Shown: positions 2,152 to 41,854 of the stretch, piece by piece
Position numbering within the stretch: the stretch's first letter is position 1
Layout: each line of letters begins with the position of its first letter
DNA from: an uncultured Gammaproteobacteria bacterium
Lineage (GTDB): Bacteria; Patescibacteriota; Patescibacteriia; Magasanikbacterales; GWA2-37-8
Length of the DNA stretch: 64,000 nucleotides
NCBI GenBank assembly: GCA_964634875.1
Contig: CAZWKA010000003.1
Coordinates: 85,928 to 149,927, forward strand
Direction of reading: 5' to 3'
Notes under the pieces: model-generated
What the model saw: the letters and a program-made list of their open reading frames with translations, nothing else
What the model was told of the DNA's origin: nothing
Database searches by the model: none
Program-made: the position numbers and the translations under genes

Positions 2152-2168
2152 CCCCAATTAAAACCATT

Positions 2169-3662: not shown

Positions 3663-3696
3663 CAGGGCAGTGCTCTAACCATTGAACTACCGACCC
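3621..3696 (-). tRNA. tRNA-Asp (anticodon GTC), CCA encoded
   Basis: The reverse complement folds as a cloverleaf. Acceptor GGGTCGG/CCGACCC, anticodon stem CTGCC/GGCAG with loop CTGTCAC, T-loop TTCGAGT, discriminator G plus CCA. Confidence 0.85.
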
Positions 3697-3711
3697 AGGT
3701 TTAACGTTATG

Positions 3712-3740
3712 ATTATAGAGGTTTGGTTATATTCTGTCAA
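3712..3740 (-). promoter_or_regulatory. Consensus sigma70 promoter for tRNA-Asp
   Basis: Minus strand reads TTGACA, 17 nt spacer, TATAAT, ending 15 nt upstream of the tRNA 5' end. Confidence 0.6.
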
Positions 3741-3966
3741 TTGTTTGTGGGGTGTATAAAATTGTTGTCCCCGCCTGTGCGGGAATGACGCAATGTACCC
3801 GTGGTATTTGGAATAATATAAAAGGCCCTTGAAGTGTTCGGTAATAGGTAAGAGTAAAGGAGGGGGTACTCAATACCAGATTACCAAACACATTTCAGGG
3901 CCTTTTAGCTTGTTTATACTAGCAGCCAGTGTCTTTCCTGTCAATGATTGCAATGTGGATAATGGC

Positions 3967-4311
3967 TTATTTTGCTGCCGCAACGACTTTTTCAAAGATG
4001 CCTTTGTGTTTTGCAGCGAGTGCAGACAAGATTTTGCGGTCAAGCGCAATATTGTGCTTTTTGAGCGCACCCATAAGTTCGCTGTAGGTTACGCCTAACT
4101 GGCGGGCAGCAGCATTGATCTTGATTTGCCACAGCGATCGATTCGTGCGTTTTTTCATTTTACGCGAGTCAAAGGCGTACTGCTCAGCCTTTTTGGCAGC
4201 AGTGCGGGCAAGTTTGAGTTTTGATTTGCGGCCCCAGCGGTAACCTTTGGTCAATTTCAGGATGCTTTTGCGGCGTTTGGCGTGGATGAGACCACCTTTA
4301 ATACGGGTCAT
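3967..4311 (-). CDS. rplT: 50S ribosomal protein L20
   Basis: MTRIKGG...KRRK... is typical L20. It is the last gene of the infC-rpmI-rplT operon. Confidence 0.9.
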   Translation of the reverse strand: MTRIKGGLIHAKRRKSILKLTKGYRWGRKSKLKLARTAAKKAEQYAFDSRKMKKRTNRSLWQIKINAAARQLGVTYSELMGALKKHNIALDRKILSALAAKHKGIFEKVVAAAK

Positions 4312-4320
4312 AGCGGTACT

Positions 4321-4515
4321 TTAGTTCGGTAAATTAATTTGCATGATGCGATTGAGGGTAGTGCTCATGATCACGTCTGATTTTTTGTTGCGGCCGGTGT
4401 TGCCGTTTTCACGACCGTTGAAATGGTTTTGGCCGGCAGCGCGTTTTTCGATTTTACCTGTCTTCGTGACTTTATAGCGTTTGCTTGTCGCTTTGTGCGT
4501 TTTCAGTTTAGGCAT
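4321..4515 (-). CDS. rpmI: 50S ribosomal protein L35
   Basis: MPKLKTHKATSKRYKVT matches the L35 N-terminal signature. Sits between infC and rplT. Confidence 0.85.
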   Translation of the reverse strand: MPKLKTHKATSKRYKVTKTGKIEKRAAGQNHFNGRENGNTGRNKKSDVIMSTTLNRIMQINLPN

Positions 4516-4582
4516 ATTCATTAAAACATTAAAGCATTAAAACATGAAAACAAGTGTTTCGATGTCCTAAGGCCTGTATGGT

Positions 4583-5128: not shown

Positions 5129-5226
5129 AAAAGTTTAAAGTGTAAAGCAAAAAGTATAAAATAGTTGTGTCGCCTTGGCGACCCGGTCATTTTTAGCTTT
5201 TAGCTTTTAATTTTTCGTTTGTTCAG

Positions 5227-5619
5227 TGGAAGTGGCGAGAGTTGAACTCGCGTCCAAAAACACGGGGCTAGAGCGTCTACGGTATGTAGTCCTCTTGTTG
5301 GTGTCCTGTCTACCTGAAAAGAGAACCAAAAGGCAAACAGTAAGCCGAAATCAATTTCACGTTTTTATCCAATCAGCGGTGGTAAAAACGCTACTCCTGG
5401 TGTTTTTACACCAGAACAAAGTTACCAGGTGTGGCCTTGTCTGATGGGCACGGCCGTTAGGCCATTGCCGGCGCAAAGGTGCTGAAAGCGTTAGCTAGAG
5501 CAGATTTGGCTTTGGAGAATAAGTTGGCACTTATTGAGTTGCCCCAACTATTAACGAGACCTGAGGCCGTCTCGATACGCGACTCTATCAGCTTGTCTCT
5601 GTCGAAACCCAGCACTCCC
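5227..5619 (-). ncRNA. ssrA: tmRNA (SsrA)
   Basis: Minus-strand 3' end GGACGCGAGTTCAACTCTCGCCACTTCCA is near-identical to the E. coli tmRNA 3' tRNA-like end. The 5' end GGGAGTGCTGGGTTTCGACAG resembles the E. coli 5' GGGGCUGAUUCUGGAUUCGACGG. The acceptor pairs GGGAGTG/CACTTCC. Located directly downstream of smpB. Confidence 0.7.
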
Positions 5620-13717: not shown

Positions 13718-16700
13718 ATGCCTAAAAAAGCGCCTGGTAAGGAGGGTGGTGGAGAAGTTTCGCTGCAGGATAAGGTTTTGCGTTTAGTTACCCGAGAACA
13801 TAGTAATCCTGACCGTAAAGTGCTTGAAACAGCGCTCCATTTGCGTGAGAAAGTTAGGTTTCTCTCGGCTGAGCAGGCTCGGTTAGTCGATGAGTTGACT
13901 GCGTTGTATGATTTGCTTACCGATGTGGTTGGTGAAGACCAGCAAGAGAAACGAAAAGAACTTTTGTTGCAGGCAGAGAAGTATTTCGTTGCTGCACGCG
14001 AACATATCATGAAACAATTTCCAACACCAAAAGATGCCCAGAAGTTTACCGGTGTTGAAAAACCGGCTGAACAATTAACGGCTGCGGGAGCCGAAACCTG
14101 GCTCCAGGGAGAAGAAGCAAAATTGGCGCCATACAATCTTTCAAAGCGGCAGCGCAAAGATTTGGCCGCGGGTAAAAAGCAATTTGAAGTTTTGGTTGGA
14201 AAATTAAAGACTGGTCAGATTACCGAACATGAAATTTTGACGACCTATCCAAAAGCACAAAGAGAGGTGGTTGAGACCGTCCGCCTTATTCTAAAGAAAC
14301 AGCAAGACCAATCACCAGCCTTTGCTGCCCCGGAACCGGAAGAGTCCGAAGTGCAAGAAGAGGCTCCTCGACAAAAACGGGTTGTAGAACAAATTGCTTC
14401 GCCTGATGTTGACCCTCAAGTTGAGGAGGAGTCGGTTGAAACTGGAGCTGAAAATGAAACCGATGAACAAATTTTTGACCGGATCAAAGCCGAGATTGAA
14501 AGCGGTGCTTTTACACTTGAAAAAGCCAAAGCATCTATTGAATTGGCTCGGACTGTCGGCGGACAAACTATTCGTGATCCTCGAAATGAAGAAGACACTT
14601 TGGCGACAGGTTGTTATTGGTACGCTTTTGGGGAAAATGGTTTGCCTCCGGATGCAGCGAAAGCACTGGCGCGTACCATGCGTGATCACTTTACCAAAGG
14701 AAAGGCCGAACAAAAAGATCGGCAAGGTGAAGCACGGTTTAATGAAATAAAAGCCCGTTTTCTAGTTGATAACCCGGCAGATATTTTGGCAGTGGCCGAC
14801 GAAATGATTGAAAAGGCAAAATCAACCCCCAAAGGACTCATGTCGACATTCAAAGCGACTTCGCCGGAGCAACAGGTATCGGTTGGTGCTTTTTGGTTTT
14901 TTAAGATGTACAAAACACCCTATAAAGGGATAGATGCAGATGCTAAAGTTTTTGCTAGCCAAGCAGCGGCTCATTTCAAAGATAAGGAGCCAAAAGTCGA
15001 AAAATCAAAAGAAGTACCCTTGGTTCGCAATAAACCAGGTTTTAATGACGCTGCAGCTCAAAAAAATGCAGAAGAAGCGGAGTATAAGGCTCAGCACCCG
15101 GAACATCCCGCACCAGCTGAGTCGCACGAAACTGAGAGTGCGGGGGCGCACGTCTTTTCTTTAGCTGATGCTATTGAAGTATTCAATGCGCTTTCTGCAG
15201 AGCAGCAAAAAAAAGTTAAAACCAGACCACGAAGAAGTCCTGAAGAACCGTTTCAAGATCCAGCGTTTACTGTGGGTGAGGCTCGTTACTGGAAAGCGTT
15301 CTTGGACAATCCAGATGTTGAACAGGCTGAAGCGGAGGCCCTAGGTAAACAAGCTGAACTTGAGTTTAGATCAATGATGGATAAGTGCATTCGCCAGCTT
15401 ATTTCTAAAGATCCAGAACAGGCTGTTTCAACTGCTCAGGATATAATTGAGCAGGCGGAGCAGCTGGAGGACAGGGAAATTTTTCCTGAAAAGGGAAGTG
15501 AAGCGGACTCGGATGCAAATATCGTTGCTCTTGGTGCTTTTTTGGTGGCTAAACATTTTGGCGGTCGAAGTCGGTCTGAAGCTAATCAGTTTGCAGAGCA
15601 CGCAAAGGATATTTTTATGACGGCTGAAGCGGCGCTGGAAGAAGCAGTTCCAGACGTAGCACCGACTCCTCGAGAGAGCGCTGAACCGGCACCGAAAGTT
15701 GAGTCGGTATCTCAGCGGTCAGTTGAAAATGAAATGAAGGTGGTTAGTCATATTGATCCTATTTTTAAAGCTTTAGATGAGGGCGAAGATTTACAATTTA
15801 CTTTTGTGGAAATAAGTCGGGCCGCTGAAAACCTGCTTAGCTCACCAAATTTTCAGGATGGAAGTTTTGATCTCGCAAAAAAAACAAACACTGAGAAAAT
15901 TGTCAGAGCCCGTTATTTGTACGCCCTTAATGTTGAGAATCTGGGAGAGCGGAAAGCTGCCCAGCTGGCCAGCGAAACCAGAAAAGCGTGCCAGCGGATT
16001 GAAAAGCTGCAAAAACCGGTTGAAAAAGTACTGATTGTTCCGGATGAAGATGAGGAGGACGATGCTGACCGCCGAGCGGCTAGTATCGCTGCGCGCAGAG
16101 GGGATGTAGTAAGTACGCACTATACGAGTGGGGTGGCGAATGAAATGCGTCGGCCGGCAAAGGATCGGACTGATATGCCGGAAGTTGAACAGCTGTCTCC
16201 GGAAGAAAAGAATAAAGCGAGTCTCTTGAGTAATCTCAAACGAACGTATTACCGGCCATTGAGTGAAAATATTGAAACATTTACATTCAAAAAAATAACT
16301 GGCAAAGAAGCTGATGAGCGGGACGCATCCCGCTTACTCCGCCGCTTGTATGATGCGCAAGTTGCGCCTTTGGTTGCTGCTTTTGAAGCGGCTGATCCAA
16401 AGAATGCCGATGAACTGGCTCGTCTGGAACGGGAAATTAAGAGCGCGGTCAAAGACCTTGATCTTAAAAGACAAGTCGCTGAGAATGCGGAATCGCTCGA
16501 CTCTATATCGATTGATTGGTTGCGTGATGGTGTTAAGAAATTAGCTGAGCAAGAATACTCTGAAAAAATCACTCTCTATAATAGTTTAGTACGTGACAAG
16601 AATGAACTTATGACTGAGTTCTCCCTCTTGCGTGATTCGTTCCCAGAAATTGACCAAGGGTTAACTACGTTTGGCCGTGAGCTGGCGAAGGCTGACGCGA

Positions 16701-16849
16701 TATATAGAAAGTCCCGGCAACCAGGTATCAAAGGAACTGAGGCAGCCAAGGTTTTTCAAGAAGCTTTTGCTGAGGCTGTCCAACAAGCTGCTAAAGAACG
16801 TAATAGCGTCCTCTTTACGCTTGAGAAGATAACCGGGGTAGCCCTTTAG
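13718..16849 (+). CDS. Giant Glu/Lys/Ala-rich alpha-helical protein (1043 aa)
   Basis: Uninterrupted 3.1 kb ORF. Highly charged. No TM helix or signal peptide. Confidence 0.65.
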   Translation: MPKKAPGKEGGGEVSLQDKVLRLVTREHSNPDRKVLETALHLREKVRFLSAEQARLVDELTALYDLLTDVVGEDQQEKRKELLLQAEKYFVAAREHIMKQFPTPKDAQKFTGVEKPAEQLTAAGAETWLQGEEAKLAPYNLSKRQRKDLAAGKKQFEVLVGKLKTGQITEHEILTTYPKAQREVVETVRLILKKQQDQSPAFAAPEPEESEVQEEAPRQKRVVEQIASPDVDPQVEEESVETGAENETDEQIFDRIKAEIESGAFTLEKAKASIELARTVGGQTIRDPRNEEDTLATGCYWYAFGENGLPPDAAKALARTMRDHFTKGKAEQKDRQGEARFNEIKARFLVDNPADILAVADEMIEKAKSTPKGLMSTFKATSPEQQVSVGAFWFFKMYKTPYKGIDADAKVFASQAAAHFKDKEPKVEKSKEVPLVRNKPGFNDAAAQKNAEEAEYKAQHPEHPAPAESHETESAGAHVFSLADAIEVFNALSAEQQKKVKTRPRRSPEEPFQDPAFTVGEARYWKAFLDNPDVEQAEAEALGKQAELEFRSMMDKCIRQLISKDPEQAVSTAQDIIEQAEQLEDREIFPEKGSEADSDANIVALGAFLVAKHFGGRSRSEANQFAEHAKDIFMTAEAALEEAVPDVAPTPRESAEPAPKVESVSQRSVENEMKVVSHIDPIFKALDEGEDLQFTFVEISRAAENLLSSPNFQDGSFDLAKKTNTEKIVRARYLYALNVENLGERKAAQLASETRKACQRIEKLQKPVEKVLIVPDEDEEDDADRRAASIAARRGDVVSTHYTSGVANEMRRPAKDRTDMPEVEQLSPEEKNKASLLSNLKRTYYRPLSENIETFTFKKITGKEADERDASRLLRRLYDAQVAPLVAAFEAADPKNADELARLEREIKSAVKDLDLKRQVAENAESLDSISIDWLRDGVKKLAEQEYSEKITLYNSLVRDKNELMTEFSLLRDSFPEIDQGLTTFGRELAKADAIYRKSRQPGIKGTEAAKVFQEAFAEAVQQAAKERNSVLFTLEKITGVAL

Positions 16850-17075: not shown

Positions 17076-20000
17076 ATGGCGAGCCCTGAAAAAAAATTGA
17101 TCACCCCTGAGTTCAAACTGCATGTGCAGCTGGTGAAAGAGCTGAATGAAGGTGACCGTAGCGACCAGCACCTGCAGGCCCTGTTTGAATTGAATGAGCG
17201 TTTTAAGTCAGTGAAGGATGTCATGAAAGACCTGCGCAGGCTCTTGAAAGAGTGGGGTGCGATCCATGACCAAAAAGAGGGGCTTCCCCCACGTGAACTC
17301 AACCAGGCAATTGCTGAGTATGCCAAAAAAGTAGTGGCTTTAGAAAACGAGTTGCTCGAGCTTGAGGCGGAAGAAAAAGAGGTTGAGGAGGCGTGGTGGA
17401 AGGAGCAGCAGGCTACAATTAAGTCTTTGGTAGCACAAAAAGATCCGCGTCATACCGCCAAAGACATCCAAAAAAGACGGGATTTAAAAAATGCTACATT
17501 TGAGGCGTTGGCTTTGTTTAAAAAGAATCAAGAGGGACAAGCGAGCCAGTCCGACCTTCACGAGTACGGGCGTTTCAAACGCCAGGTTATTGATTCGCTG
17601 GCGGAATTAGCTCCGCGGGTCCAGACAGACGAACTAGACGAGGCGGTTGATGCCCGTGATACTCAACCTAATCCGGTTGTCCCCGATGTGGCTTCCGAGC
17701 CAAAACCAGTCGATGCCCGTGATACTGCTCCACACACACCAGTTATGGATGATGAACCAGATGCCCGGGACACTGCGCCGCATACTCCAGTGTTTAATGA
17801 CACTAATCCTGATGCTCGTGACACCGCTCCTCATACGCCGGTTTTTGATGATCCTGATGCCCGTAACACTGCTCCCCACACACCAGTATTTGCCGAACCA
17901 CCAGCGCCGCCAAAGAAAAAAGGTTTTTGGGGTCGGATTAAAGAAGTCTTTTCTAGCAAAGAAGTTCAGAAAAAAGCAGCTAAAACAATTTTGTACGATG
18001 TGCCGATGCGCGCTCTGGGGGCAAAGGCAGTTTTTGATTGGATCGGTGCGTCTCCGCTTGCTGCTGCCCGTGTCGCTGAAATGGTCGGGGGTGAAAAATT
18101 AAAAAATAAAGTTAAGGGGTATGTTGGTGAGGGCAGGGGAGATGTTGCTGCTTACTATAAGGGCGGTCGCGAGGCTGAAGAAGAATTAGAACAACTGCAA
18201 CCTCAGATCGATGAAGTGGTGCTTGCGCTTGGTCGTGACATGAAAGAACGTCGTGCTCAGGACACGGACGCTGAGCTGCGCGTGCAAGCAAAATTAGATA
18301 CTTTGCAACACATGATCGCGGGGGCAAAAAATATCGCTCCGGCCGAGCGCGCTGTTTTGTTTGAATCGCTGACGGATATCGTTACAAGCTACGGTGAAGC
18401 CCAAAAAACTGCCGAAGCTGCTTTGCTCAAAAAAACCCAAGCGCTCCTTGAGCGTCATGTACGTAACCAGGCCAACAAATTGGCTTTGGTTCGTGATGGT
18501 GTTAACGCCATTCTTACTGCAGCTGGTTTACCAATGGTTCGGGCAGTTGCCTACGCTGGTATGAGTGCCTATGAAGCAGTGCGACGGGTAAGTCTTGAGC
18601 GTAAAGGCGGGGCGGCGGGTGAATCTAAAAAAGATGCTGCTAAACGGTATGCCAGTACTGTTGGAACTGCTGCGCGCGAATCGTTTAATGCTTTGCTCTT
18701 CAGAGGCCGCAAAAATGAAGGTTCGGTGGCGCAACGTGGTATTGAAGGTGTGGCTGCGTGGGGTCAGGCTCTGTCTGTCTTTGGTATCAGTGTTCAAGCG
18801 CTTGATGGTCATGCACCAACGAGTAGTGAAGGTTTCCAATCGCTCATTAATGCGATTAAAGAACGAGGTGCCGAAGGCGCACTTGACCAAATGGGTAGCA
18901 ATATTGCCCAGAATGCAGACCGTGTTGCCAATATCCCCGCTACGTTTGCCCGTGGCGTGGGGCATGCGTATGATGCGGGGCACACTGCGGTCGATTATGT
19001 AACTGGTACCTCGCATGATACTTCTCGGCTACTTGATGGTGCGCCAGAATTTTCTTTTAATAATTTTGCTCAAGAAAACCATCTGAGTAAACCAGAAGGA
19101 GATTTTTTGGCCGGTCTGCTTAAATACCCCAGCCTTCGCAATAATCCGGAAGTATTTCAAAATATTCTTAAGCTCTCGGATGCCGGCAACCATAATGGTG
19201 TAGCAGAACGAATACTTGGGGACGTTAAAATGTATACCTTCAAAGCAATGGTGGATGCCGGAGCTGGTAAAGAAGAGTTGGCCGGTTTTGTTCGCGATCA
19301 ACATTTTAGTAGTCGTCATTTGGAACACCTCAAAGGCGTACACCTGGGTTCAAAACCCAGTGCGGAAAAAATTGCTGAAGCGCTCCAGGCAGCGATGGGT
19401 AAGAAGTCAAGCGGCGTTTATGATGTCTTCAAAGCTAAGGCAACAAGTGAGTACCAACATGCCCTTGCCCAGAAACATGGTGACCATTTACGTTTGCGCG
19501 GAAATGATTTGCGTCTGTATGGCTTTGACAAAGATGGTAACCCAATTTTGGGTGGCAAAGGTACGGCAACGCTGCTGCACCGTTCTGGTGGAAGTCATGG
19601 TGTTCTTCAGGCTGGAAAATCCAGCGTGTCGTCTGCTCAGGCGGTTGAAGCGTATGCCAAGCAGCTTGGGTATGCTGATCCAGAAGCATATGAAGTATAT
19701 AAAGATAATGATGCCCTGGACGATGCCGGTGATATGTCACCGCCAGCCAGCTGGAAACTCGCCGGCTCGAGTTCGGCGGCCGAGAGTATACGGCATTTGG
19801 AAGAAATGTTTGCTATGGAAGACCCTCAAGCCTATGCGCTCTATCAAGCGGGTAAAGAGAACGGTGGTCTCGAAGATTTTGATACCTCTACCCTTGTCGC
19901 TAGTCGCACTGACATGGTGCCAAGTTCGTCTGGTTCAGTTACGGCTGAGGCAATGCAACGTGCTCCGGCGGCGGAGGCGTTGCGAACTACTCCTCGTGAA

Positions 20001-20675
20001 ACGGTTGTGGCTGCGTTCCATCCGCAAAAAGAACATGATTGGGGAGTTGATTCAAAAGCAGAAGCTCCGGTTGAAGCCCGTGCTCCTCGTGTTAGTTCCC
20101 GCGCCCTAGAAACTGCAGCTGGTTCAGAAGCTGCCCAGGGTGGATGGGGGATGGATGCGCAAACAGCGGAAAGGAATTTGAGTAGAATGGAAGCGGCTCT
20201 CGAGCGTTCGATTAATGGAGTTGACCTTACCGGCGCCGGTTTTTCCAAGAATCGTATTATGGATGCTTTTGCGGCTTGGCGTGACCGGGTGAGCGGTGCG
20301 ATTGAAGATGGAAAGCCGCTTGATGCGGGAGTTAAGGCCAGTGCCACCGAAGCACTGCAACGGTTTAATGTTTCTAGTAAAGATACTGAAGCTCTTGGGT
20401 TTGCGATTTTTGATGCTGATCCTAAGCTGCATAGTGTCGCACGAGAAATTAGTTTGATTATGGCACCTAAAGATCCTAATGTGGGTTTTGCGGCTAATGG
20501 TAGCCGCGGGGTCTGTGTCTTTGACCGGTCAGCCGGTACTTGGCAGTTTTCGACCTATTCAGACAAGCTTTTCTCAATGAGCGGCGGAAGATTGGTTAAA
20601 GCTGACCTCCAGGGCAATATAGAAAAGGTCTATGAAGACCCCCAAGCCTTTTTAGAAGTTCAGCGAGAAGAGTAA
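17076..20675 (+). CDS. Giant protein (1199 aa) with tandem DARDTAPHTPVF repeats
   Basis: 3.6 kb ORF containing four to five peptide repeats and a Pro-rich spacer. Confidence 0.65.
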   Translation: MASPEKKLITPEFKLHVQLVKELNEGDRSDQHLQALFELNERFKSVKDVMKDLRRLLKEWGAIHDQKEGLPPRELNQAIAEYAKKVVALENELLELEAEEKEVEEAWWKEQQATIKSLVAQKDPRHTAKDIQKRRDLKNATFEALALFKKNQEGQASQSDLHEYGRFKRQVIDSLAELAPRVQTDELDEAVDARDTQPNPVVPDVASEPKPVDARDTAPHTPVMDDEPDARDTAPHTPVFNDTNPDARDTAPHTPVFDDPDARNTAPHTPVFAEPPAPPKKKGFWGRIKEVFSSKEVQKKAAKTILYDVPMRALGAKAVFDWIGASPLAAARVAEMVGGEKLKNKVKGYVGEGRGDVAAYYKGGREAEEELEQLQPQIDEVVLALGRDMKERRAQDTDAELRVQAKLDTLQHMIAGAKNIAPAERAVLFESLTDIVTSYGEAQKTAEAALLKKTQALLERHVRNQANKLALVRDGVNAILTAAGLPMVRAVAYAGMSAYEAVRRVSLERKGGAAGESKKDAAKRYASTVGTAARESFNALLFRGRKNEGSVAQRGIEGVAAWGQALSVFGISVQALDGHAPTSSEGFQSLINAIKERGAEGALDQMGSNIAQNADRVANIPATFARGVGHAYDAGHTAVDYVTGTSHDTSRLLDGAPEFSFNNFAQENHLSKPEGDFLAGLLKYPSLRNNPEVFQNILKLSDAGNHNGVAERILGDVKMYTFKAMVDAGAGKEELAGFVRDQHFSSRHLEHLKGVHLGSKPSAEKIAEALQAAMGKKSSGVYDVFKAKATSEYQHALAQKHGDHLRLRGNDLRLYGFDKDGNPILGGKGTATLLHRSGGSHGVLQAGKSSVSSAQAVEAYAKQLGYADPEAYEVYKDNDALDDAGDMSPPASWKLAGSSSAAESIRHLEEMFAMEDPQAYALYQAGKENGGLEDFDTSTLVASRTDMVPSSSGSVTAEAMQRAPAAEALRTTPRETVVAAFHPQKEHDWGVDSKAEAPVEARAPRVSSRALETAAGSEAAQGGWGMDAQTAERNLSRMEAALERSINGVDLTGAGFSKNRIMDAFAAWRDRVSGAIEDGKPLDAGVKASATEALQRFNVSSKDTEALGFAIFDADPKLHSVAREISLIMAPKDPNVGFAANGSRGVCVFDRSAGTWQFSTYSDKLFSMSGGRLVKADLQGNIEKVYEDPQAFLEVQREE
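17649..17895 (+). repeat. In-frame tandem repeat (about 39-45 nt unit) encoding DARDTAPHTPV(F/M)DD
   Basis: Repeated GATGCCCGTGA(T/C)ACTGCTCC(A/T)CA(C/T)ACACCAGT units are visible in the sequence. Confidence 0.7.
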
Positions 20676-20997: not shown

Positions 20998-21165
20998 TCT
21001 TTACAATATCACACTATTCTACACTGCTTCTGAAAGAAGACAGGACATCTTTCTCTTGAATCTACTATAGATTGAAGAAAGAAACGCCCTGTCTTCGGAC
21101 AGCAAGCACCAACTTGATCCCCACGCCGGGGATTGCTACGGATCACTGAGACAAAGGAGCCGCCC
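20998..21165 (+). promoter_or_regulatory. Structured leader 1: TCTTTACAA box, then a long imperfect hairpin plus an ATCCCC/GGGGAT hairpin, then an SD
   Basis: AAGACAGGACAT...CCCTGTCTT hairpin. CTGTC-TTCG-GACAG tetraloop. CCCCACGCCGGGG hairpin. AGGAG SD 7 nt before the ATG. Confidence 0.5.
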
Positions 21166-21612
21166 ATGAACGCTTCCAAGATTGCCCTCGGTTTCGCCGC
21201 CCTCGCCATCGCCCTCAGCACCGGCTGCAGCGGCACCCCGTTCTCCGGCAGCAGCGGCATCGACGCCGGCCGCAGCCTCAGCCGGAGCACGACGACGGAG
21301 ATCGACACCACCACCACCGTCGTCGACGGTCCCGCCTTCACCAAGGCGGACAGGGCGCTCCTCGCCCGGCTGCGCACCACGGTCTACGGTGGGAAGAAGA
21401 CGGTCGGTCTCGTCCGCCGCGTCGACTACCTCGAGTACAGGACCGGGCACAAGGCCGACCTCGACGCCCTGGCCGAGATGGACGCGCGCACCAAGCTCGC
21501 CCAGATCGAGGCCCGCCGCGCCACCAAGGCCCCCAAGCTCGCCCAGAACGACGGCGGCACGGTCAACGTGCTCGTCCGCACCCCCGCGGACGCCACGGTC
21601 GAGAAGCGGTAG
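21166..21612 (+). CDS. Lipoprotein (148 aa), GC-rich
   Basis: Start MNASKIALGFAALAIALSTGCSG (lipobox) with a good SD. GC3-rich codons. The ORF-track start at 21133 is upstream of the SD. Confidence 0.6.
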   Translation: MNASKIALGFAALAIALSTGCSGTPFSGSSGIDAGRSLSRSTTTEIDTTTTVVDGPAFTKADRALLARLRTTVYGGKKTVGLVRRVDYLEYRTGHKADLDALAEMDARTKLAQIEARRATKAPKLAQNDGGTVNVLVRTPADATVEKR

Positions 21613-21793
21613 CTACGGCTGCCGTTGGTATAGGATAGTGTGAAGGTCGCCCGCGCATATTGGCGCGGGGGATCGAGCGACCGGGAGTCATACGTAGAGG
21701 TTGGCGATATAATCGCCGACCGCTCGAGACTCCTGGTCGACCTCGCTTTTTCTTCAGCATTACGATGATGCAGAAAAAGTGAGTGAAGTTGCT

Positions 21794-21924
21794 CTTTACA
21801 AACGCAAGACAGGACATTTTTAACTTCAATATCGTTGAAGTAAGAAACGCCCTGTCTTGCGAAAAACAGATTGGTCCCCACGCAGGGACTGTAACGGCTC
21901 ACTGACAGAATGAAGGAGTCCATC
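21794..21924 (+). promoter_or_regulatory. Structured leader 2, paralogous to leader 1
   Basis: Same TCTTTACAA box. AAGACAGGACAT...CCCTGTCTT stems with a different but still complementary inner hairpin. GTCCC/GGGAC hairpin. CACTGA and AAGGAG elements conserved. Confidence 0.5.
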
Positions 21925-22578
21925 ATGAAGGCCATCCGCACGCTCTCCCTCATCGCCGCCGCTCTCGTCCTCACCGCTGGCATCGCCCGCGCGGACGATG
22001 CGGGCATGAAGACCACGGTCATCAAGTGCACGAAGGCGGAGATCGCCGCCGGGACCTGCACGATCGACGTGACCCTGCCCACCCCGGCGCCCCCCGTCGT
22101 CGTGGCTCCCTCCGAGCCGCCCCCCCCGCCCCCCCCCCCCCCCCCCGGCGGGGGCCCCCCCCCGCCCCTCGGCGCCCCCCCCCCCCCCGCGCACCACCCC
22201 CCCCCGAGCCGCCCCCGCCGCCCCTCGCCCCGCCCCCGGTCGTCGTCACCCCCGAGCCGATCGTCGCCCCGCCCCGCCTCGCGAACAGCCCCGCCCTGCA
22301 GAAGGCCTTCACCCAGACGGCTGAGGAGCACAAGGGCCTCAGCCGCCAGGCCAAGCTCGGGATCGGCTTCGGTGTCGGCGGCGCGGTCCTCGCTGGTGTC
22401 GCGGTCGGCCTCATCGTGTGGCACGTCACCAACGACGGCCTCTACCAGATCAAGCCGCCGATCACCGTGGCGCCCAACGCCCTGACGAACCTCGGCAGCG
22501 GCCCCCTCCGGCTCTCCGGCGCGTCCGTCACCCCGATCCCCGGCGGTGCGGTTCTCTCCGCGGCTCTCGTCTTCTAGA
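21925..22578 (+). CDS. Signal-peptide, proline-rich, C-terminally membrane-anchored protein. The reading frame shifts within the poly-C tracts (frameshifted or phase-variable).
   Basis: Frame 1 (from 21925) encodes a signal peptide, a domain, then poly-Pro. A different frame (22026 track) carries poly-Pro, PPVVVTPEPIV, a TM helix (LGIGFGVGGAVLAGVAVGLIVW), and ends at 22578. The two frames are joined only through the C12-C17 homopolymers. Confidence 0.5.
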
Positions 22579-22694
22579 CCCCCTTCCTCACATGAGGAGC
22601 AGCTCCCGGTTCCTACCGGTCGAAGCTCGCTCCTCGCCCTTTCAACAACGATGAAACTTTCGTGGTTGTTGAAAGGGTTGAAAGACCCACAAGT

Positions 22695-22805
22695 TCTTTA
22701 CAACAGGTTCGGGAAATTTTAACTGCCTAAGTACTATAGGCAAGTGGAATGTCCCGAACCGACAATGTCCCAGCCTAAGAACTGGGCCAAAACCTGGAGA
22801 AGTGC
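22695..22805 (+). promoter_or_regulatory. Structured leader 3 (TCTTTACAA box plus GTTCGGGA...TCCCGAAC hairpin plus CCCAG/CTGGG hairpin)
   Basis: Shares the box and two-hairpin architecture with leaders 1 and 2. Contains AATGTCCC twice. Confidence 0.45.
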
Positions 22806-23795
22806 ATGAACACGATGACTCGCGGTTTGCTTGTCCTTTGTCTCGCCCTCGCCGCCGCGTGCGGCCCCGACCGCACCCTCTGCGCCCCGGGCGCCGAGGC
22901 GATCCTCGCCGTCGGCAACAACACCACCGATTCCCACGGCTTCCTCTGCGGCTGCGACAGCACCTCCGAGTGCGTCGCGGGCCAGCGGTGCGGGTGGTCC
23001 TCCGACTACAAGCGCAACGTCTGCTCCGACAACCTGCTCCAGTCCCTGCCCCCCGGGAGCAATCCCTGCAGCCTGAACAATGGCGGCTGCCGGTCGGACG
23101 AGACCTGCGTCTACAACACCGCCCTGAACTCGGTGTCCTGCACGCCGCCGCCCAAGCCCCAGTGCAACATCACCTGCGGCGCGGGCCAGAAGGCGGCCAC
23201 GAACGCCAACGGGGGCTGCTTCTGCGCCCCGACCTGCGAGGGCGTGGTGTGCGGCGCGGGCCAGACCTGCCAGCTCAACTTCGACCGCGGCCTGTGCGTG
23301 AGCAACTGCCGCGCCCCCTACGTCGAGTGCGGCGGATCCTGTGTCCTGACCCAGCTCAACAACAGCCACTGCGGCGGCTGCGGGAACATCTGCGGCCCCG
23401 GCTCGACCTGCCAGGGCGGCACCTGCCAGCAGATCCCGGCCCCCCAGGATGTGACCTGCCATGGGATGCGGTTCACGCTGGCCCAGGGCACGAACACGAA
23501 CACCACGGCGCGCGAGTGCCGCGGCTACGACATCCGCGGCGACCAGGCCTGGTCCATCGCCCCGCCGACCCCCGGCACCGAGACCAGCGCTCCCAACGGC
23601 ATCTGCGCCGCGACCTGCCTCTCGCAGGCCGGCACCGAGACGGTCGTCCCGGCCAACGGCAGCGCGATCTGGATCCCCGGTGGCAACCAGGACGTCCCGC
23701 GCTACACGCGCCCCGGCTGCCCGCGCCTCCGCTGGCACCCGGTCGGCGACCCCTTCGGCGCCGGCTTCGCGTGGGACGCCTTCTGCGAGCAGTAG
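22806..23795 (+). CDS. Cysteine-rich secreted lipoprotein with EGF-like and CxxGQxC repeats
   Basis: Signal peptide plus lipobox LAAAC. Repeated C-x-x-G-(A/Q)-G-Q-x-C units and a CSLNNGGCRSDETC EGF-like module. GC3-rich. The antisense 334 aa ORF is judged spurious. Confidence 0.65.
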   Translation: MNTMTRGLLVLCLALAAACGPDRTLCAPGAEAILAVGNNTTDSHGFLCGCDSTSECVAGQRCGWSSDYKRNVCSDNLLQSLPPGSNPCSLNNGGCRSDETCVYNTALNSVSCTPPPKPQCNITCGAGQKAATNANGGCFCAPTCEGVVCGAGQTCQLNFDRGLCVSNCRAPYVECGGSCVLTQLNNSHCGGCGNICGPGSTCQGGTCQQIPAPQDVTCHGMRFTLAQGTNTNTTARECRGYDIRGDQAWSIAPPTPGTETSAPNGICAATCLSQAGTETVVPANGSAIWIPGGNQDVPRYTRPGCPRLRWHPVGDPFGAGFAWDAFCEQ

Positions 23796-23833
23796 GCTCG
23801 ACCTAGCTCTCGGCTTCTAGCCGATTGAGCAAG

Positions 23834-23863
23834 GGGCGGGCACACTTCACCGTGTGCCCGCCC
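23834..23863 (+). terminator. GC-rich hairpin (12 bp perfect stem) ending the island
   Basis: GGGCGGGCACAC-ttcacc-GTGTGCCCGCCC. No T-tract follows. Confidence 0.45.
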
Positions 23864-24052
23864 GACCCCTTATCCTGATCATGAACAAAACGTTCGTGGC
23901 AAGAATAAGAGGAAAGAAAATAAAAAAATAATCTTTCAACAATTACTTCTGACGCAGAAATAGTTGTTGGCAGATTACGTACTTCGGTACTAATCCACCA
24001 ACCCAAAAATTCCGCCTATCTCTCTGGGTGGATTTTTGTTTATGGACCAGTA

Positions 24053-24084
24053 CTAAGCAAAGTAGGCAGAGTAAGCAGATTAAG
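24053..24084. repeat. Short palindromic repeat family, copy A (left arm flanking the 4HB gene)
   Basis: AGCAAAGTAGGCAGAGTAAGCAG. Inverted partner at 24463-24500. Related copies at 29411-29480 and 41377-41410. Confidence 0.7.
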
Positions 24085-24463
24085 TTTTGTTTTGTGGAAG
24101 ATAGCTTCTTTGTACTTGGATCCAGCGTGTGAGGAGTTTTCCGACTTCCTCGCAAAGTTGTAGGGCAGAATCGTGCTCTGCTTTTTTTATATATTCCAGA
24201 TCTTTGGCTAAAAGAAAGTGGTATTTTGTCTCTTCAAGAGATGCGTCAGCAATATTATAAAAATGAAGACTGTCGCGTAAATTTCTTCTTCTAAAACCCT
24301 CAACTATATTAGTAGGTACCGAAGCTGCAGACCGCCGCACTTGGCTAGTCAATCCAAATAATTCTGTTTTTGGGAAATCGCTAGTTAGTTTATAAACTAA
24401 AAGAACCAAGGTATGTGCTTTCTGCCAAACTTGTAAATCCCGAAAAATTTTGATTGTCGCCAT
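24080..24463 (-). CDS. Four-helix-bundle protein (TIGR02436 family; 23S-rRNA intervening-sequence protein / DGR Avd-like)
   Basis: Family signature ...LTSDFPKTELFGLTSQVRRSAASVPTNIVEGF... within a 127 aa protein. Confidence 0.8.
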   Translation of the reverse strand: MATIKIFRDLQVWQKAHTLVLLVYKLTSDFPKTELFGLTSQVRRSAASVPTNIVEGFRRRNLRDSLHFYNIADASLEETKYHFLLAKDLEYIKKAEHDSALQLCEEVGKLLTRWIQVQRSYLPQNKT

Positions 24464-24500
24464 ACTTACTCTGCTTAGAACTTACTCTGCTTACTTTGCT
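24463..24500. repeat. Short palindromic repeat family, copy A' (right arm, inverted; tandem CTTACTCTGCTTAG units)
   Basis: Its reverse complement is AGCAAAGTAAGCAGAGTAAG, matching the left arm with one mismatch. Confidence 0.7.
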
Positions 24501-25941
24501 GGCTAGCCGCCCAATACCCCCACACGGCCCAGAACCACCAGATGACTGGGGTGTGGTGGAGCATGTTGTCGGACAAGCTCATGATGAGATAGATAAGGAT
24601 GCTCAGAATGAACGAAAAATGGATCCAGCGTCCACTGAGGAGTGTTTTAAATTCGTGGTACATGAGGGTGACGAAGATGCAGAGATACAAGAAAAGCCCG
24701 ATCAGGCCGCTTTCAAAAGCGACTTTGAGATAGTCGTTGTGGGCTTCGGAAGTGTTGTCGAATAAATTTTCGACCCCTTTGTTATAGTCCCAGACTTTGC
24801 TAAATGAGCCATAGCCATAGCCAAGGTAGGGCCGGGCCTGGAAGAGGGGAATAATTTTATTAGCAATATCTGCGCGCCATTTGATGGAATCGGCATCTTC
24901 GTTGCGGCCGGTTAGGCGGCCAATGACACTATTTGATTGCAGGTTGATATTGTAGGTGTGGCCGACCCAGTTATTGATTGGGTAAAAGAGCGTATAAAAA
25001 AGTATGGCGCCACCCACCAGGTATAGGAATACTTTTTCGTAATAAAAAAAACAAATTGCCAGAATAAAAGCAGCCAGGCCGATCCAAGCTACGCGCGTAT
25101 AGGTAAAAACAATAATAAGCGTCAGGAAGGCAAAAGCAAGCGGTGTGTACGTATGCCAGTGTTCGGTGGTGCGCCCAGAGAACCGGCGGAAAAATTGGGC
25201 CACAGGATGGAGGAACTGGTCGACGAGGTTCCTTTTTTCAAAGCGTAGCTGGAACCGATAGGTATAATCCGCCAGTACAATGAACAAGACGACAGCGAAA
25301 GTGGCGAGGAGGTTCGGGTGGGCAAACGTGCCAAAAATACGGTTGGTTACGCCGTCGATGGTCATGCCGCCACCAGTAAGTAATTGGTAAAGAGCTAAGA
25401 GCAGTGGAAAACCGGCGGCAATAATCAGGCTTAGGTAAAAGGGCCAGACAAATTTGTCGCCTTCTTTGCGGCGCAGAATATTGCAGACGCCGAAAAGGGC
25501 AAAGAGATTGGCGGCTTTCAGTGTTTCGGTAACAGTAGAAGAAGGATCGAAACTATAAAGAAAGCTAAAACCGCACCAGGCAATGAAAATAAGCCAGGGG
25601 TAGCGGGCAGGAATCTGGTTCCAATAGCTCCGGTTCTTAATAAAAAAATAAACTGCCCAGCCCGCTAGAAGGAGTGAGATGGCTGCGTTGAGGTTAAAGG
25701 TGACGCTACCGAGGGTAAAGAAGGCATAGTCCCTCAGGCCGTCAATCGTAGGCCGAATCGCTAAGAACAAGAGGATGGCTCGCTCACCAAAAAGCTTGTG
25801 AAGGACAATGAGGGCAATGAGGAGAAACGCAAAGACATCGCCGCCGCTGGTTGGGTTAAAAACCGTAAAAGCAATCAGGCTAATGATGAGCCAGGCCCAC
25901 AAAGCAAAGGAATCACGCATAGTTGAGCGAAAAAACGCCAA
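24475..25941 (-). CDS. O-antigen ligase/polymerase-family (Wzy_C/WaaL-like) membrane protein
   Basis: At least ten TM helices. SEAHNDYLKVAFESGLIGL motif. A large periplasmic loop. Confidence 0.7.
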   Translation of the reverse strand: MAFFRSTMRDSFALWAWLIISLIAFTVFNPTSGGDVFAFLLIALIVLHKLFGERAILLFLAIRPTIDGLRDYAFFTLGSVTFNLNAAISLLLAGWAVYFFIKNRSYWNQIPARYPWLIFIAWCGFSFLYSFDPSSTVTETLKAANLFALFGVCNILRRKEGDKFVWPFYLSLIIAAGFPLLLALYQLLTGGGMTIDGVTNRIFGTFAHPNLLATFAVVLFIVLADYTYRFQLRFEKRNLVDQFLHPVAQFFRRFSGRTTEHWHTYTPLAFAFLTLIIVFTYTRVAWIGLAAFILAICFFYYEKVFLYLVGGAILFYTLFYPINNWVGHTYNINLQSNSVIGRLTGRNEDADSIKWRADIANKIIPLFQARPYLGYGYGSFSKVWDYNKGVENLFDNTSEAHNDYLKVAFESGLIGLFLYLCIFVTLMYHEFKTLLSGRWIHFSFILSILIYLIMSLSDNMLHHTPVIWWFWAVWGYWAASQQSKQSKF

Positions 25942-29234: not shown

Positions 29235-29402
29235 ATGAACCTTACTTGTCCAGAATGTAAAAATGCTGTCGATATGGCACCTTATGCTACGCTTGATGTC
29301 GGGCATGTCGTGGAGTGTAATAGCTGTGGTATGACGCTCATGGTGAAAGACATTGATGAAGCCAAAAACGTACAGGTTGAGATTGTAGACGAAGGGAAAT
29401 AA
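29235..29402 (+). CDS. Small zinc-ribbon protein (55 aa; LysW/TFIIB-ribbon-like), absent from the ORF track because it is below 60 aa
   Basis: MNLTCPECKNAV...VECNSCGMTL with two CxxC pairs and an acidic tail. Confidence 0.4.
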   Translation: MNLTCPECKNAVDMAPYATLDVGHVVECNSCGMTLMVKDIDEAKNVQVEIVDEGK

Positions 29403-29410
29403 ACAGTACG

Positions 29411-29480
29411 AAGCAGATTAGGCAGAGTAAGCAGATTAAGCATTGGTTTACTTACTCTGCTTAGTACTTACTCTGCTTAG
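29411..29480. repeat. Short palindromic repeat family, copy B (both arms adjacent, an empty-site hairpin)
   Basis: AAGCAGATTAGGCAGAGTAAGCAGATTAAG-cattggttta-CTTACTCTGCTTAGTACTTACTCTGCTTAG. Confidence 0.7.
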
Positions 29481-30857
29481 TACTTCAACAAGTTCTTCAA
29501 TCATTCCTCTGAATCCGTGACTGCCTAAGAACACGACTACACCCCCTTTGGGTGTTTTTTCGTTGAGATAGGTAATGAGTTTTTTATCGTCATCGATATA
29601 TGAAACAGCAGTGTGTGTTTTGGAGATAATTTTGGCCAGCTTGTCGCCTTCGAGTATTTTTGTATCTTGGGCAGAATCCTTTTTTACCAAGGTCAGGCGG
29701 GGAATAACTACTTCGTCAGCGGCGCTAAAGGCGTGTGCATACCCGGGGGCAGCTTGGAGCTGGCGATTGCCGGTGTTTGGCTCAAATACGGCAATAATTT
29801 TTCCTGAGTACAGTTTTCGGAGCGACGATAACACGGCTTCGGCTTTGCTCGGCGAATGGGCGATGTCGTCAAAGATTGTTGCGCTGCCTTCATACCGTTT
29901 TTCCAGGCGGCGTTTCATGCCTTTAAAACTAGCGATAGCGGCAATTATTTTTTCTGGTTCTATACCCATTTTAGTAGTCAGTGCAAAACAACCCGTGATA
30001 TTGTCGGCCATGTATTCTCCGAGCGTGGCCGTTTGTAGTTTGTAGGCAGTGCCGTCATGCGTGATAGTGAATTTGAGGCCGTCTTTCGTTTGAGCAATAC
30101 CGGAATACCTAAAATCGTTGTCAGTATTTTTTCCATAACTGACAACGCTCAGCTGTTTGGCTTTTTTGGTGGTAATGACGGGCAGTGCTTTTTCAGAAAC
30201 AACCAGAAGTCCGGCTTTAGGTAGCGAGTCGACTAATTTTTGAAATGCTTCGCGGTATAGCGCTTCGGTTGGATAGACGTCAGCATGATCCCAAACAACT
30301 GAAGTGAGGAGTAGTTCGGTAGGAGCGTAGTATGCAAACTTAGGACCTGTGTCCCAGCGTGAGGCTTTGTATTCATCGCCCTCGACCACGGCCCAGTCGC
30401 TTTTGGTGAGTTCTGCGGCCGGCAGGTCGTTCAGGGCGAGCCCGCCAAACATGTAACTCGGATCGTACCCGGCTTCTTTGAGGATCCAGGTGAGCAGTGT
30501 GGTCGAGGTCGATTTACCATAGGTACCGGCACAGACGATGGAATGTTTTTTGCGTTTGATAAAAAAATCACGGATCACTTCGGGGTAGGATTTATAGGGA
30601 AGGTTTTTTTCTTGGACGGCCAGCCATTCCGGGTTGCTAGAACCGGCAACATTCCCAACAATCACTAAATCGGGCGTGCCCATATTTTCGGGATGCCAGC
30701 CTGGGTAGAAGTCAATGTCAGCGTCTTTGAGGTGAGTCGAAACCGGTGGGTAAAATCCGACGTCTGAGCCGGTAACTTTGTATCCTTCGCGCTTAAAGGC
30801 GAGGGCAAGGGCGCTCATCGCAACGCCGCAGATGCCGATGAAGTGGAAGTGTTTCAT
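29448..30857 (-). CDS. Mur ligase family, MurC/Mpl-type
   Basis: N-terminus MKHFHFIGICGVAMSALA. GTYGKSTST P-loop. Mur ligase middle and C-terminal domains. Confidence 0.7.
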   Translation of the reverse strand: MKHFHFIGICGVAMSALALAFKREGYKVTGSDVGFYPPVSTHLKDADIDFYPGWHPENMGTPDLVIVGNVAGSSNPEWLAVQEKNLPYKSYPEVIRDFFIKRKKHSIVCAGTYGKSTSTTLLTWILKEAGYDPSYMFGGLALNDLPAAELTKSDWAVVEGDEYKASRWDTGPKFAYYAPTELLLTSVVWDHADVYPTEALYREAFQKLVDSLPKAGLLVVSEKALPVITTKKAKQLSVVSYGKNTDNDFRYSGIAQTKDGLKFTITHDGTAYKLQTATLGEYMADNITGCFALTTKMGIEPEKIIAAIASFKGMKRRLEKRYEGSATIFDDIAHSPSKAEAVLSSLRKLYSGKIIAVFEPNTGNRQLQAAPGYAHAFSAADEVVIPRLTLVKKDSAQDTKILEGDKLAKIISKTHTAVSYIDDDKKLITYLNEKTPKGGVVVFLGSHGFRGMIEELVEVLSRVSTKQSK

Positions 30858-31543
30858 AGTGGTTTCTGAAAATATGCTAACCAAAAGTTCCGTTTGTAAC
30901 TGCGATTGTTCATTTTGGAATAACTTTCTTTTTTATCAAGGTTCAGTAAGGTGAAATATTTGCCGTACATGGTTGTGAAATCCAGCCGATCAAAGACGCG
31001 TTCGGTTAACCCAAGTTCCTTCATATAATAGGTGTCTTTTTCACGCCCCGGACTTTTTTTGAGGAGTTCTTTGGCATTTTTATCGCCTTCTTTACAAAGT
31101 GCTTTGACGAACAGATAACCACCTGGTTTGAGGGTGCGGTTTATTTCGGTTAGGTATACTTCCCGTTCCTGTTCATTGAGCGAGTTTGATGAGGTAACAT
31201 CCATAATAAGATCAAACGTGAGGTCGGGAAAGGGGAACGATTCACCAAAGCTTTTAATCAGGTAGTTTACCGATACGCGCATTTTTTGGGCGTCGCCTTT
31301 GGCAATGGCAACTGCGGTCGGTGAGATTTCGATGCCAGTAACAACGGCGCCCTCTTTGGCTAGGTGGTTGGCGTTGCGCCCGGTGCCGCTCCCCAGGTCG
31401 AGGGCGCGTTTGCCTTCCAAATCAAAATCACGTTCTTTACGCAAAAATTTTAAGAAACGCAAAGTGTCTTTTTGTGGTTCAGGGTTGAAGTGAAGGAGTT
31501 TGCTCTGTCGGTACTCCTGTTCCCAGACTTTTCCTTGCGCCAT
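30854..31543 (-). CDS. Class I SAM-dependent methyltransferase
   Basis: LDLGSGTGRN motif I. Confidence 0.7.
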   Translation of the reverse strand: MAQGKVWEQEYRQSKLLHFNPEPQKDTLRFLKFLRKERDFDLEGKRALDLGSGTGRNANHLAKEGAVVTGIEISPTAVAIAKGDAQKMRVSVNYLIKSFGESFPFPDLTFDLIMDVTSSNSLNEQEREVYLTEINRTLKPGGYLFVKALCKEGDKNAKELLKKSPGREKDTYYMKELGLTERVFDRLDFTTMYGKYFTLLNLDKKESYSKMNNRSYKRNFWLAYFQKPL

Positions 31544-41376: not shown

Positions 41377-41410
41377 GTAAGCAGATTAGGCAGAATAGGC
41401 AAAGTAAGTA
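41377..41410. repeat. Short palindromic repeat family, copy C
   Basis: GTAAGCAGATTAGGCAGAATAGGCAAAGTAAGTA. Confidence 0.55.
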
Positions 41411-41437: not shown

Positions 41438-41854
41438 TCAACGTTTCAGATACGCTTCAAACACAGGGTACAGGTTTGGAATGATATTTGCCTGCGTATA
41501 TTCTTTAGGGTCTATCCACGCAAAAGCAGTATGGTCCGCGCTGAGGGCCACCGTGTCTGTTGCACTTTCGCATTCAAAGAAAATGCCGACAATTTGCCAG
41601 GGCTCGTCTTTAACCGTTGGCCGCCATTCATTTACAAAAAATGGTTTGCCGATCGTTATCGCAAGCCCAGTTTCTTCGAGGACTTCACGCCGTAGTGCAT
41701 CGTCAAATCGTTCACCAGGTTGTATTCGTCCGCCAACAACATCATATTTATTCACGTTTGTTCCGTCCTGGTAGTTACTCGATTCTTGCAAAACTAAAAT
41801 TTTACCCTTGTGGGTGATGAATGCTTTGGTGGCAACAAATAGCTTTGGTTCCAT
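41438..41854 (-). CDS. NUDIX hydrolase
   Basis: NUDIX box GGRIQPGERFDDALRREVLEETGL. Confidence 0.85.
   Translation of the reverse strand: MEPKLFVATKAFITHKGKILVLQESSNYQDGTNVNKYDVVGGRIQPGERFDDALRREVLEETGLAITIGKPFFVNEWRPTVKDEPWQIVGIFFECESATDTVALSADHTAFAWIDPKEYTQANIIPNLYPVFEAYLKR

Follow-up and report, generated by a model that had tools for sequence, protein, structure and literature searches.

The closest described relatives of the element presented here are the intervening sequences (IVS) of 23S rRNA genes that carry an open reading frame (ORF), as in Leptospira and Coxiella burnetii (S23p). In both cases terminal inverted repeats form a long stem, the ORF lies in the loop, and its product belongs to the same protein family, PF05635. 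A GC content below that of the host, a sporadic distribution and a long-suspected mobility are also common to both (PMC4990558), and the notion that intervening sequences with an ORF are mobile elements goes back to 1993, as cited in PMC4990558. A homologous four-helix-bundle (4HB) fold is found in Avd of diversity-generating retroelements (DGRs), which forms a pentamer and acts on structured RNA. Here we describe a 4HB gene enclosed by inverted arrays of a short tandem repeat in a 64,000-nucleotide stretch of a Magasanikbacterales genome (contig CAZWKA010000003.1 of assembly GCA_964634875.1, positions 85,928 to 149,927), hereafter called the window. The evidence inclines us to regard this element as one copy of a compact, promoter-less selfish cassette that is typical of the whole PF05635/TIGR02436 family.

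The whole element, ORF and both arms, occupies positions 24049-24500 (about 450 bp). The ORF is on the minus strand (24080..24463) and encodes a protein of 127 aa. Profile matches above the curated cutoffs (PF05635, E 5e-38, 129.9 bits, cutoff 33.8; TIGR02436, 119.3 bits, cutoff 24) and the conserved motifs Q..R...S...N..EG..R and SLEE..Y clearly place the predicted product in the PF05635/TIGR02436 family of four-helix-bundle (23S rRNA IVS) proteins, the TIGR02436 identity having been proposed already in the first-pass annotation of this DNA. The arms consist of tandem copies of the 9-mer TARGCAGAN (TAAGCAGAG, TAGGCAGAG and TAAGCAGAT) with now and then a 7-nt unit. In gene-strand order, the 5' arm (24464..24500, minus strand) reads AGCAAAG TAAGCAGAG TAAGTTC TAAGCAGAG TAAGT and leads straight into the ATG. 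The 3' arm (24049..24084, minus strand) reads CAGTAC TAAGCAAAG TAGGCAGAG TAAGCAGAT TAAG on the plus strand. The loop is filled exactly by the ORF: the ATG (24461-24463) abuts the right arm and the stop codon (24080-24082) is within the left arm. The sequence AGCAAAGTAGGCAGAGTAAG at 24056-24075 has a reverse complement with one mismatch at 24481-24500, an inverted repeat of 20 nt with 95% complementarity, which bears out the earlier observation that the gene stands between inverted arms. With a two-mismatch copy at 29412-29431, this 20-mer has three matches in the window, against 0.01 expected by chance. When the RNA of 24040-24510 is folded, the two arms pair around the ORF in the minimum free energy structure and in the centroid alike.

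The element lies 11 nt behind a co-directional gene of the Wzy_C O-antigen-ligase family (24475..25941, minus strand), and the 5' arm also carries the final codons and the stop (24475-24477) of that gene. A promoter scan found no promoter-like site in the 5' arm, between the Wzy_C-type gene and the 4HB ORF. Because of the short gap and the lack of such a site, the 4HB gene is probably co-transcribed with the Wzy_C-type gene.

The same arms are found again at 29405-29485, separated by 9 nt only and with no gene inside (left arm 29410-29440, loop CATTGGTTT at 29441-29449, right arm 29450-29485). This confirms a gene-less hairpin that had been placed at about 29411-29480. Its stem is about 35 bp long, with a predicted dG of -33 to -36 kcal/mol and z-scores of -5 to -6. 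It lies between a LysW-like gene (29235-29402) and a convergent Mur ligase gene (29448-30884) and overlaps the last codons of the latter. Compared with filled elements, this hairpin is most similar to the window's own filled copy in the 3' arm and tied in the 5' arm, with the arms of other genomes nearly equal. A third copy, previously located near 41377-41410, is a solo degenerate array (41378..41408, plus strand; TAAGCAGAT TAGGCAGAA TAGGCAAAG TAAG) in the spacer just past the 3' end of a NUDIX gene (41438-41854, minus strand). The first-pass annotation had also stated that the repeat supplies the ends of two neighbouring genes. Both ORFs do read into an arm, the Wzy_C-type protein ending in ...SQQSKQSKF and the Mur ligase in ...STKQSK, but the longest ORF of the Mur ligase starts at 30884 and not at 30857.

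Homologues of the 4HB protein number in the hundreds, and the closest are in Magasanikbacteria and other Patescibacteria. We compared the DNA around eight distinct homologues with 63-77% identity. Inverted TARGCAGAN arrays bracket all eight and none was found bare; different flanking sequences in relatives, which had been envisaged, are not what these loci contain. Six intergenic positions are occupied, five of them within one syntenic block of cell-wall genes (GT4, ATE_C-like, methyltransferase, Mur ligase, LysW-like, PALP, GHL15, Wzy_C). The element is behind Wzy_C in the window and in locus L002, between GT4 and ATE_C-like in L003 and L012/L013, between methyltransferase and GT4 in L009, between ATE_C-like and Mur ligase in L023, between Mur ligase and LysW in L007, and at an unrelated site in L015. 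Arms and ORF thus occur jointly at different sites in relatives, and since homologues with the same arms sit at different sites, gene and arms behave as one unit that changes location. ORF-less hairpins also come and go between relatives. The filled element of L007 is at exactly the Mur ligase/LysW junction that holds the ORF-less hairpin in the window, a junction where L002 has an unrelated plain hairpin. Between PALP and GHL15, L002 in turn carries an empty hairpin of the 9-mer that is absent from this place in the window. A given site can be free, can contain a hairpin without an ORF or can contain an ORF-bearing element; this holds here and also in Xanthomonas (see below). In L013 the Mur ligase/LysW junction (5150-5240) contains another kind of foldback, built of inverted (AAAGTCK)n heptamer arrays. 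In L023 (Magasanikbacteria GW2011_GWC2_37_14, 3690-4500) the arms enclose two genes, the 4HB ORF (3720-4097) and an ORF of 120 aa (4104-4466) that matches no family of Pfam, NCBIfam, PADLOC or PHROGs.

To count the forms of the array, one genome per species was scanned for two consecutive units. This gave at least 117 loci, about 60 of them from metagenome-assembled genomes of Magasanikbacteria type. Among the matches listed, these 60 or so loci comprise 27 hairpins that lack an ORF and have loops of 1-70 nt, 43 solo arrays and 4 filled copies, which puts numbers on the coexistence of filled and empty copies seen earlier in the window. In the DNA sampled from Magasanikbacteria-type genomes the ORF-less form is about seven times commoner than the ORF-bearing form. 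Paired arms always follow the order (TARGCAGAN)n, loop, inverse array, with no case of the reversed (-,+) order; this and the preceding ratio again refer to the matches listed. The only parent-like, ORF-bearing form carries the 4HB gene and not a transposase. Most of the array hairpins in Magasanikbacteria-type genomes lie between co-directional genes, and they have no T-tract and are not terminator-like. The terminator scan did not call the array hairpins, nor are they followed by a T-run. An identity as intrinsic (rho-independent) terminators was considered and rejected, given the missing T-tracts, the terminator scan and the position of most hairpins between co-directional genes. The suggestion that they are an ordinary terminator family unassociated with 4HB genes is likewise at odds with these features and with the arms carried by all eight close homologues. 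Locus L082 has two identical five-unit 9-mer arrays (2000-2052 and 4473-4525) with identical 25-nt flanks, in direct orientation and 2.47 kb apart, and a weak 4HB-like ORF lies between them (3954-4370, E 1e-4). Many records of metagenome-assembled genomes, among them those of loci L025, L026, L031, L036 and L050, are titled 'uncultured Gammaproteobacteria bacterium', although their gene content and repeats are plainly those of Magasanikbacteria/Patescibacteria.

The association extends well beyond this phylum. Scanning metagenomes with 26 aligned members of the family yielded 80 loci with homologues of 45-60% identity. For each gene the flanks were scored by local alignment of the 90 nt upstream with the reverse complement of the 90 nt downstream. 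The median score was 26, compared with 14 for mismatched upstream/downstream pairs, and a score of at least 30 was reached by 43% of 68 4HB genes and by 1.9% of the 158 other ORFs from these loci (Mann-Whitney p = 5e-16). As in the window, the arms are inverted arrays of tandem units of 7-9 nt. The unit depends on the lineage, and GGAGTCA/GAATTCA, GGAGTAG, GGAGCTA, CCACCTA, GAACACAA, GGATACAA, GGAATCA, TAGTAGC and others were seen. In all but two of the 26 strongest cases the arm ends 0-35 nt before the ATG, and the 3' arm is often at the stop codon or overlaps it. Whatever the GC content of the host, arm sequence covaries with the protein clade. The similarity of arms between elements climbs with protein identity (Spearman 0.43, p = 1e-70), and arms are shared by 61% of the pairs with close proteins and a difference in host GC of at least 0.10, but by 0% of the pairs with distant proteins at similar GC. 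The GC content of the gene is below that of its flanks in nearly every locus. Of 49 upstream neighbours, 43 are co-directional, and the median gap is 49 nt. Taken together, the flank scores, the covariation of unit and protein, the low GC of the gene and the co-directional neighbours indicate that the arms are intrinsic to the element, that the element moves between hosts and that it needs read-through transcription. In one clade of these homologues, Rfam DUF3800-IX RNA motifs (46 bits, gathering score 36.8) occur 100 nt to 1.5 kb upstream of the 4HB genes (L155, 1502-1569; L160, 886-953 and 1395-1467).

Several copies are present in cultured organisms. In a tblastn search against plasmids the family was found almost only in cyanobacteria. 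In Nostoc punctiforme, Nostoc C052 and Trichormus variabilis, (GGAGTCA/GAATTCA)n precedes the ATG of the copies and the inverse array follows the TGA. In Picosynechococcus PCC 7003 the copy lies between cmr2 and cmr3 with inverted (GGAGATA)n arrays, and in Anabaena sp. 90 it lies between cas6 and cas4 with outer (GGTGACA)n arms. The 4HB gene of Pseudanabaena galeata plasmid pPg_01 (L222, 500-1060) is also between cas6 and cas4, with long direct arrays on either side, (GCTAAAA)n upstream of the gene and (GCCAAAA)n downstream of it.

In Xanthomonas campestris and X. citri, the 4HB protein XCC0516, which has been crystallised (PDB 2GSC), is encoded between accB and accC. Its 5' array reads GGGAATC GGGAGTG GAGAATC GGGAATC, and the inverse array follows the gene and abuts the ATG of accC. 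The same junction is a spacer of 10 nt in Stenotrophomonas, a degenerate hairpin in X. albilineans, and in X. translucens an ORF-less hairpin with (GGGACTC)4, a loop of 40 nt and (GAGTCCC)4 (dG -92 kcal/mol). The filled, empty and unoccupied states of the window therefore recur at the Xanthomonas accB-accC site. Rehm et al. counted 186 GGGAATC arrays in X. campestris, 70 of them convergent pairs and one overlapping the start of XCC0516; they read the arrays as G-quadruplex candidates and made no link to the XCC0516 protein (PMC4692102). At two of the Xanthomonas loci (L223, 2845-2875; L226, 2843-2873) accC starts directly after the 3' arm without a recognisable Shine-Dalgarno sequence, and AAGGA is found upstream of accC in element-free Stenotrophomonas.

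Unlike the 23S rRNA IVS, the element is located outside rRNA genes and behind protein-coding genes: no rRNA gene was detected in the window with Rfam, and none of the 80 metagenomic loci is in one. Its arms are short tandem repeat arrays, and ORF-less hairpin copies are abundant between genes. The 23S rRNA IVS is processed by RNase III, and by analogy the same may apply here. With MITEs (miniature inverted-repeat transposable elements) and other foldback elements, and with repetitive extragenic palindromes (REP) and bacterial interspersed mosaic elements (BIME), our element shares small, multi-copy intergenic inverted repeats, a rare long form that bears a gene next to many short gene-less forms, and a presence that varies between related genomes. 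MITE-like traits seen here are the terminal inverted repeats, the small size, the many copies and the insertion polymorphism. It differs from all of these in that no transposase or REP-associated tyrosine transposase (RAYT) was found with it and no target-site duplication could be defined, in that its arms are tandem 7-9-mers, and in that its cargo is a 4HB protein without known DNA-breaking activity. Integron gene cassettes consist of a promoter-less single ORF, read through from upstream, with an imperfect inverted-repeat site that forms a hairpin. Our element resembles them in its promoter-less single ORF, its dependence on read-through and its hairpin-forming boundary, but it has no integrase or attI, the repeats are on both sides of the ORF, and the insertions are scattered and not arrayed. 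Short tandem repeat families are a further point of comparison. The cyanobacterial short tandemly repeated repetitive (STRR) heptamers are one, and the Xanthomonas GGGAATC arrays (PMC4692102), the very family that brackets XCC0516, are another. TAACTGA heptamers have been reported from Beggiatoaceae, Cyanobacteria and Bacteroidetes (PMC4679880). Both papers interpret such arrays as G-quadruplex-forming or translational signals and neither relates them to 4HB genes; '23S', 'S23' and 'helix bundle' are absent from their main texts.

In our judgement, gene and arms probably, though by no means certainly, form a single mobile cassette that has ORF-less derivatives. We hold the structural and comparative statements more firmly than this, and the recognition of units by the protein and the processing by RNase III less firmly. 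The arms are taken as part of the element because arms and gene move together to different sites and because arm sequence covaries with protein clade across host GC. The cassette would then be an ORF bracketed, up to its start and stop codons, by lineage-specific arrays of 7-9-nt units, nearly always head-to-head, placed directly behind a co-directional host gene, and the hairpin at 29405-29485 would be the ORF-less form of the window's filled element. The Avd-like and putatively pentameric 4HB protein may recognise, in DNA or in RNA, the units repeated in its own arms. Such recognition would fit, by analogy, the association of the Avd barrel with structured DGR RNA, as well as the five chains per entry in both 2GSC and 2RLD, the PDB relatives identified by sequence similarity. 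The Avd of DGRs has been described as a barrel that is pentameric and carries positive charge, and RNA stem-loops that bind it have been sought downstream of the template repeat (bioRxiv 10.1101/2023.10.23.563531). In the read-through transcript the arms may fold back as in an ORF-bearing rRNA intervening sequence, and processing by RNase III, again by analogy, would render insertion within operons (accB-accC, cmr2-cmr3, cell-wall genes) harmless. The ORF-less hairpins may be deletion derivatives, or non-autonomous copies kept or spread in trans. As DNA, the element could move by recombination through the arms into cognate hairpins, by means of a hairpin-specific enzyme acting in trans, or by an RNA-mediated route.

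Several observations weigh against this cassette model. About half of the metagenomic homologues have no strong flanking repeat, the arrays of the Pseudanabaena galeata copy are direct and not inverted, and the ORF-less hairpin at accB-accC has the unit GGGACTC, while the filled elements have GGGAATC/GGGAGTN. In the Magasanikbacteria hairpins no target-site duplication could be defined, direct repeats are not evident beyond the folded stems and the boundaries are not sharp. Neither a transposase nor a recombinase nor a reverse transcriptase was found with the element, the sole recombinase of the window being in a Rep and serine-recombinase island (1351-3662). Mismatches between the arms on the sense strand show no bias for G-U over A-C (30 vs 38), so they do not demonstrate selection for pairing at the RNA level, and a constraint on RNA alone is not supported. 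Moreover, in the 27 Magasanikbacteria hairpins complementarity within elements is no better than between elements (median 32 vs 33). In the light of both results, the conserved feature is the inverted arrays of the cognate unit and not element-specific base pairs. These conserved arrays, together with the covariation of unit and protein, would therefore point to recognition of the units by the protein.

Some of these points would sit well with a different origin, in which the arrays are an independent hairpin family, of the host or mobile, and the 4HB ORF alone invades the loops of cognate hairpins or tandem arrays, by recombining through the arms or by homing directed by the protein, like homing-endonuclease genes into intron loops. 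The first-pass annotation had leaned this way when it described the gene as inserted between the arms of a palindromic repeat. The boundaries of the ORF coincide with the inner ends of the arms, ORF-less hairpins are far more numerous than filled ones among the matches listed, and arms are interchangeable within the Magasanikbacteria family. The Pseudanabaena galeata gene looks as if it had split a direct tandem heptamer array, and at the accB-accC site the units of the X. translucens hairpin differ from those of the filled element. The invading ORF is nevertheless hard to reconcile with arms that are present on all eight close homologues, none of them bare, and whose type tracks the protein clade even across contigs that differ by at least 0.10 in GC. 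The protein has no known nuclease or recombinase motif, and the empty hairpin of the window is closest, if only marginally, to its own filled element. We consider this origin unlikely. Insertion into a pre-existing palindrome was set aside, since arms and gene travel together and arm sequence covaries with the protein clade. The broader link drawn earlier between this protein family and palindromic structures proved real and general as an association, but not in its direction: the arms belong to the element and are not a palindrome of the host that the gene invaded.

It is more doubtful still that the arms are purely a cis-regulatory RNA of the 4HB gene, with nothing mobile about them. They would then provide a long-range stem, control of translation or of RNase III cleavage, or units that resemble a Shine-Dalgarno sequence, and the ORF-less hairpins would be unrelated regulatory or terminator hairpins grown from the same slippage-prone unit. 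A predicted long-range stem does enclose the ORF, GGAG stands at Shine-Dalgarno distance in many 5' units (e.g. GGAGTCAGAATAAATG), the genes are placed co-directionally behind host genes, and the rRNA intervening sequences cut by RNase III offer a precedent (PMC4990558). Such a role accords poorly with the lack of a G-U bias and of element-specific covariation, with hairpins that have no T-tracts, are not terminator-like and mostly lie between co-directional genes, with a gene GC below that of the host, and with gene and arms that occupy different sites in relatives and vary in presence at orthologous sites. The DGR link raised in the first-pass annotation found little to sustain it, and we regard an identity of the 4HB gene as the Avd of a DGR as very improbable. 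Pfam bAvd is matched weakly (39.8 bits, cutoff 40) and a PHROG annotated 'Avd protein of DGR' is matched with E 1.6e-12, but the DGR Avd equivalog NF033474 scores 46.1 bits against a cutoff of 80. A Pfam scan of 39 window ORFs (105-1199 aa), which included every plausible gene of at least 250 aa, revealed no reverse-transcriptase domain, and no reverse-transcriptase gene was called in related loci. The window contains no direct repeat like a template repeat/variable repeat pair, its only long direct repeat family being the arms. PADLOC models for anti-phage defence gave no match.

Returning to the mobile cassette, parts of this picture have been touched on before: 4HB genes were noticed inside cas loci (PMC3936711), and heptamer arrays have been reported several times without being explained (PMC4679880, PMC4692102). 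The searchable literature has only passing mentions of PF05635, 23S_rRNA_IVP, 'S23 ribosomal protein' and 'four helix bundle protein'; it does not mention 'TIGR02436', and 'intervening sequence protein' and 'tandem repeat' never occur together in it. It offers no description of inverted tandem-repeat arrays that systematically bracket these genes, and no account of the covariation of unit and protein or of ORF-less hairpin families as derivatives of 4HB elements. A wider and decidedly tentative proposal is that PF05635 4HB proteins may be sequence-specific partners of 7-9-nt tandem arrays and constitute a widespread, unrecognised class of selfish or regulatory elements. If so, the ORF-bearing rRNA intervening sequences would be one special case of such array-partner elements. 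Heptamer and nonamer families that lack an explanation, such as the Xanthomonas GGGAATC arrays and possibly the cyanobacterial STRR- and TAACTGA-type arrays, would be ORF-less derivatives or targets. The scatter of 4HB genes inside cas and other operons would be explained, and DGR Avd, recruited by a reverse transcriptase, would be a domesticated member of this class. Because the gene is bracketed by arrays whose unit covaries with the protein, and because gene-less arrays form whole repeat families, three decades-old puzzles are tied together by the data, namely the spread of intervening sequences, the meaning of the abundant heptamer-type arrays of bacteria and the enigmatic 4HB protein. Two current readings call for some caution, as a 4HB gene within a cas operon is not necessarily a functional CRISPR partner and the arrays of Xanthomonas are not necessarily G-quadruplex signals and nothing else. 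The proposal is directly testable in tractable organisms, such as Xanthomonas campestris with XCC0516 (crystal structure, accBC operon), Nostoc punctiforme and Picosynechococcus PCC 7003.

Other regions of the window were also annotated. Two very large ORFs have no Pfam match (13718-16849, 1043 aa; 17076-20675, 1199 aa, with short repeats of the DARDTAPHTPV type). A Rep protein (PF23343) and a large serine recombinase (1351-3696 and 5226-5619) adjoin a tRNA-Asp gene, with a tmRNA gene nearby, and this region is probably a small integrated replicon or a phage remnant. The 4HB element itself lies between the Wzy_C-type gene and a GC-rich island (21000-23900) with 68% GC in a genome of about 45% GC. 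The ORFs of the island include a Cys-rich, lipoprotein-like one (22806-23795, plus strand) without a Pfam match and a proline-rich one (21910-22485). The junction between island and element recurs in an independent Logan contig (L001), and GC-rich DNA is also found past the element in L002 (10480-10660). The island looks like real foreign DNA and not an assembly chimera.

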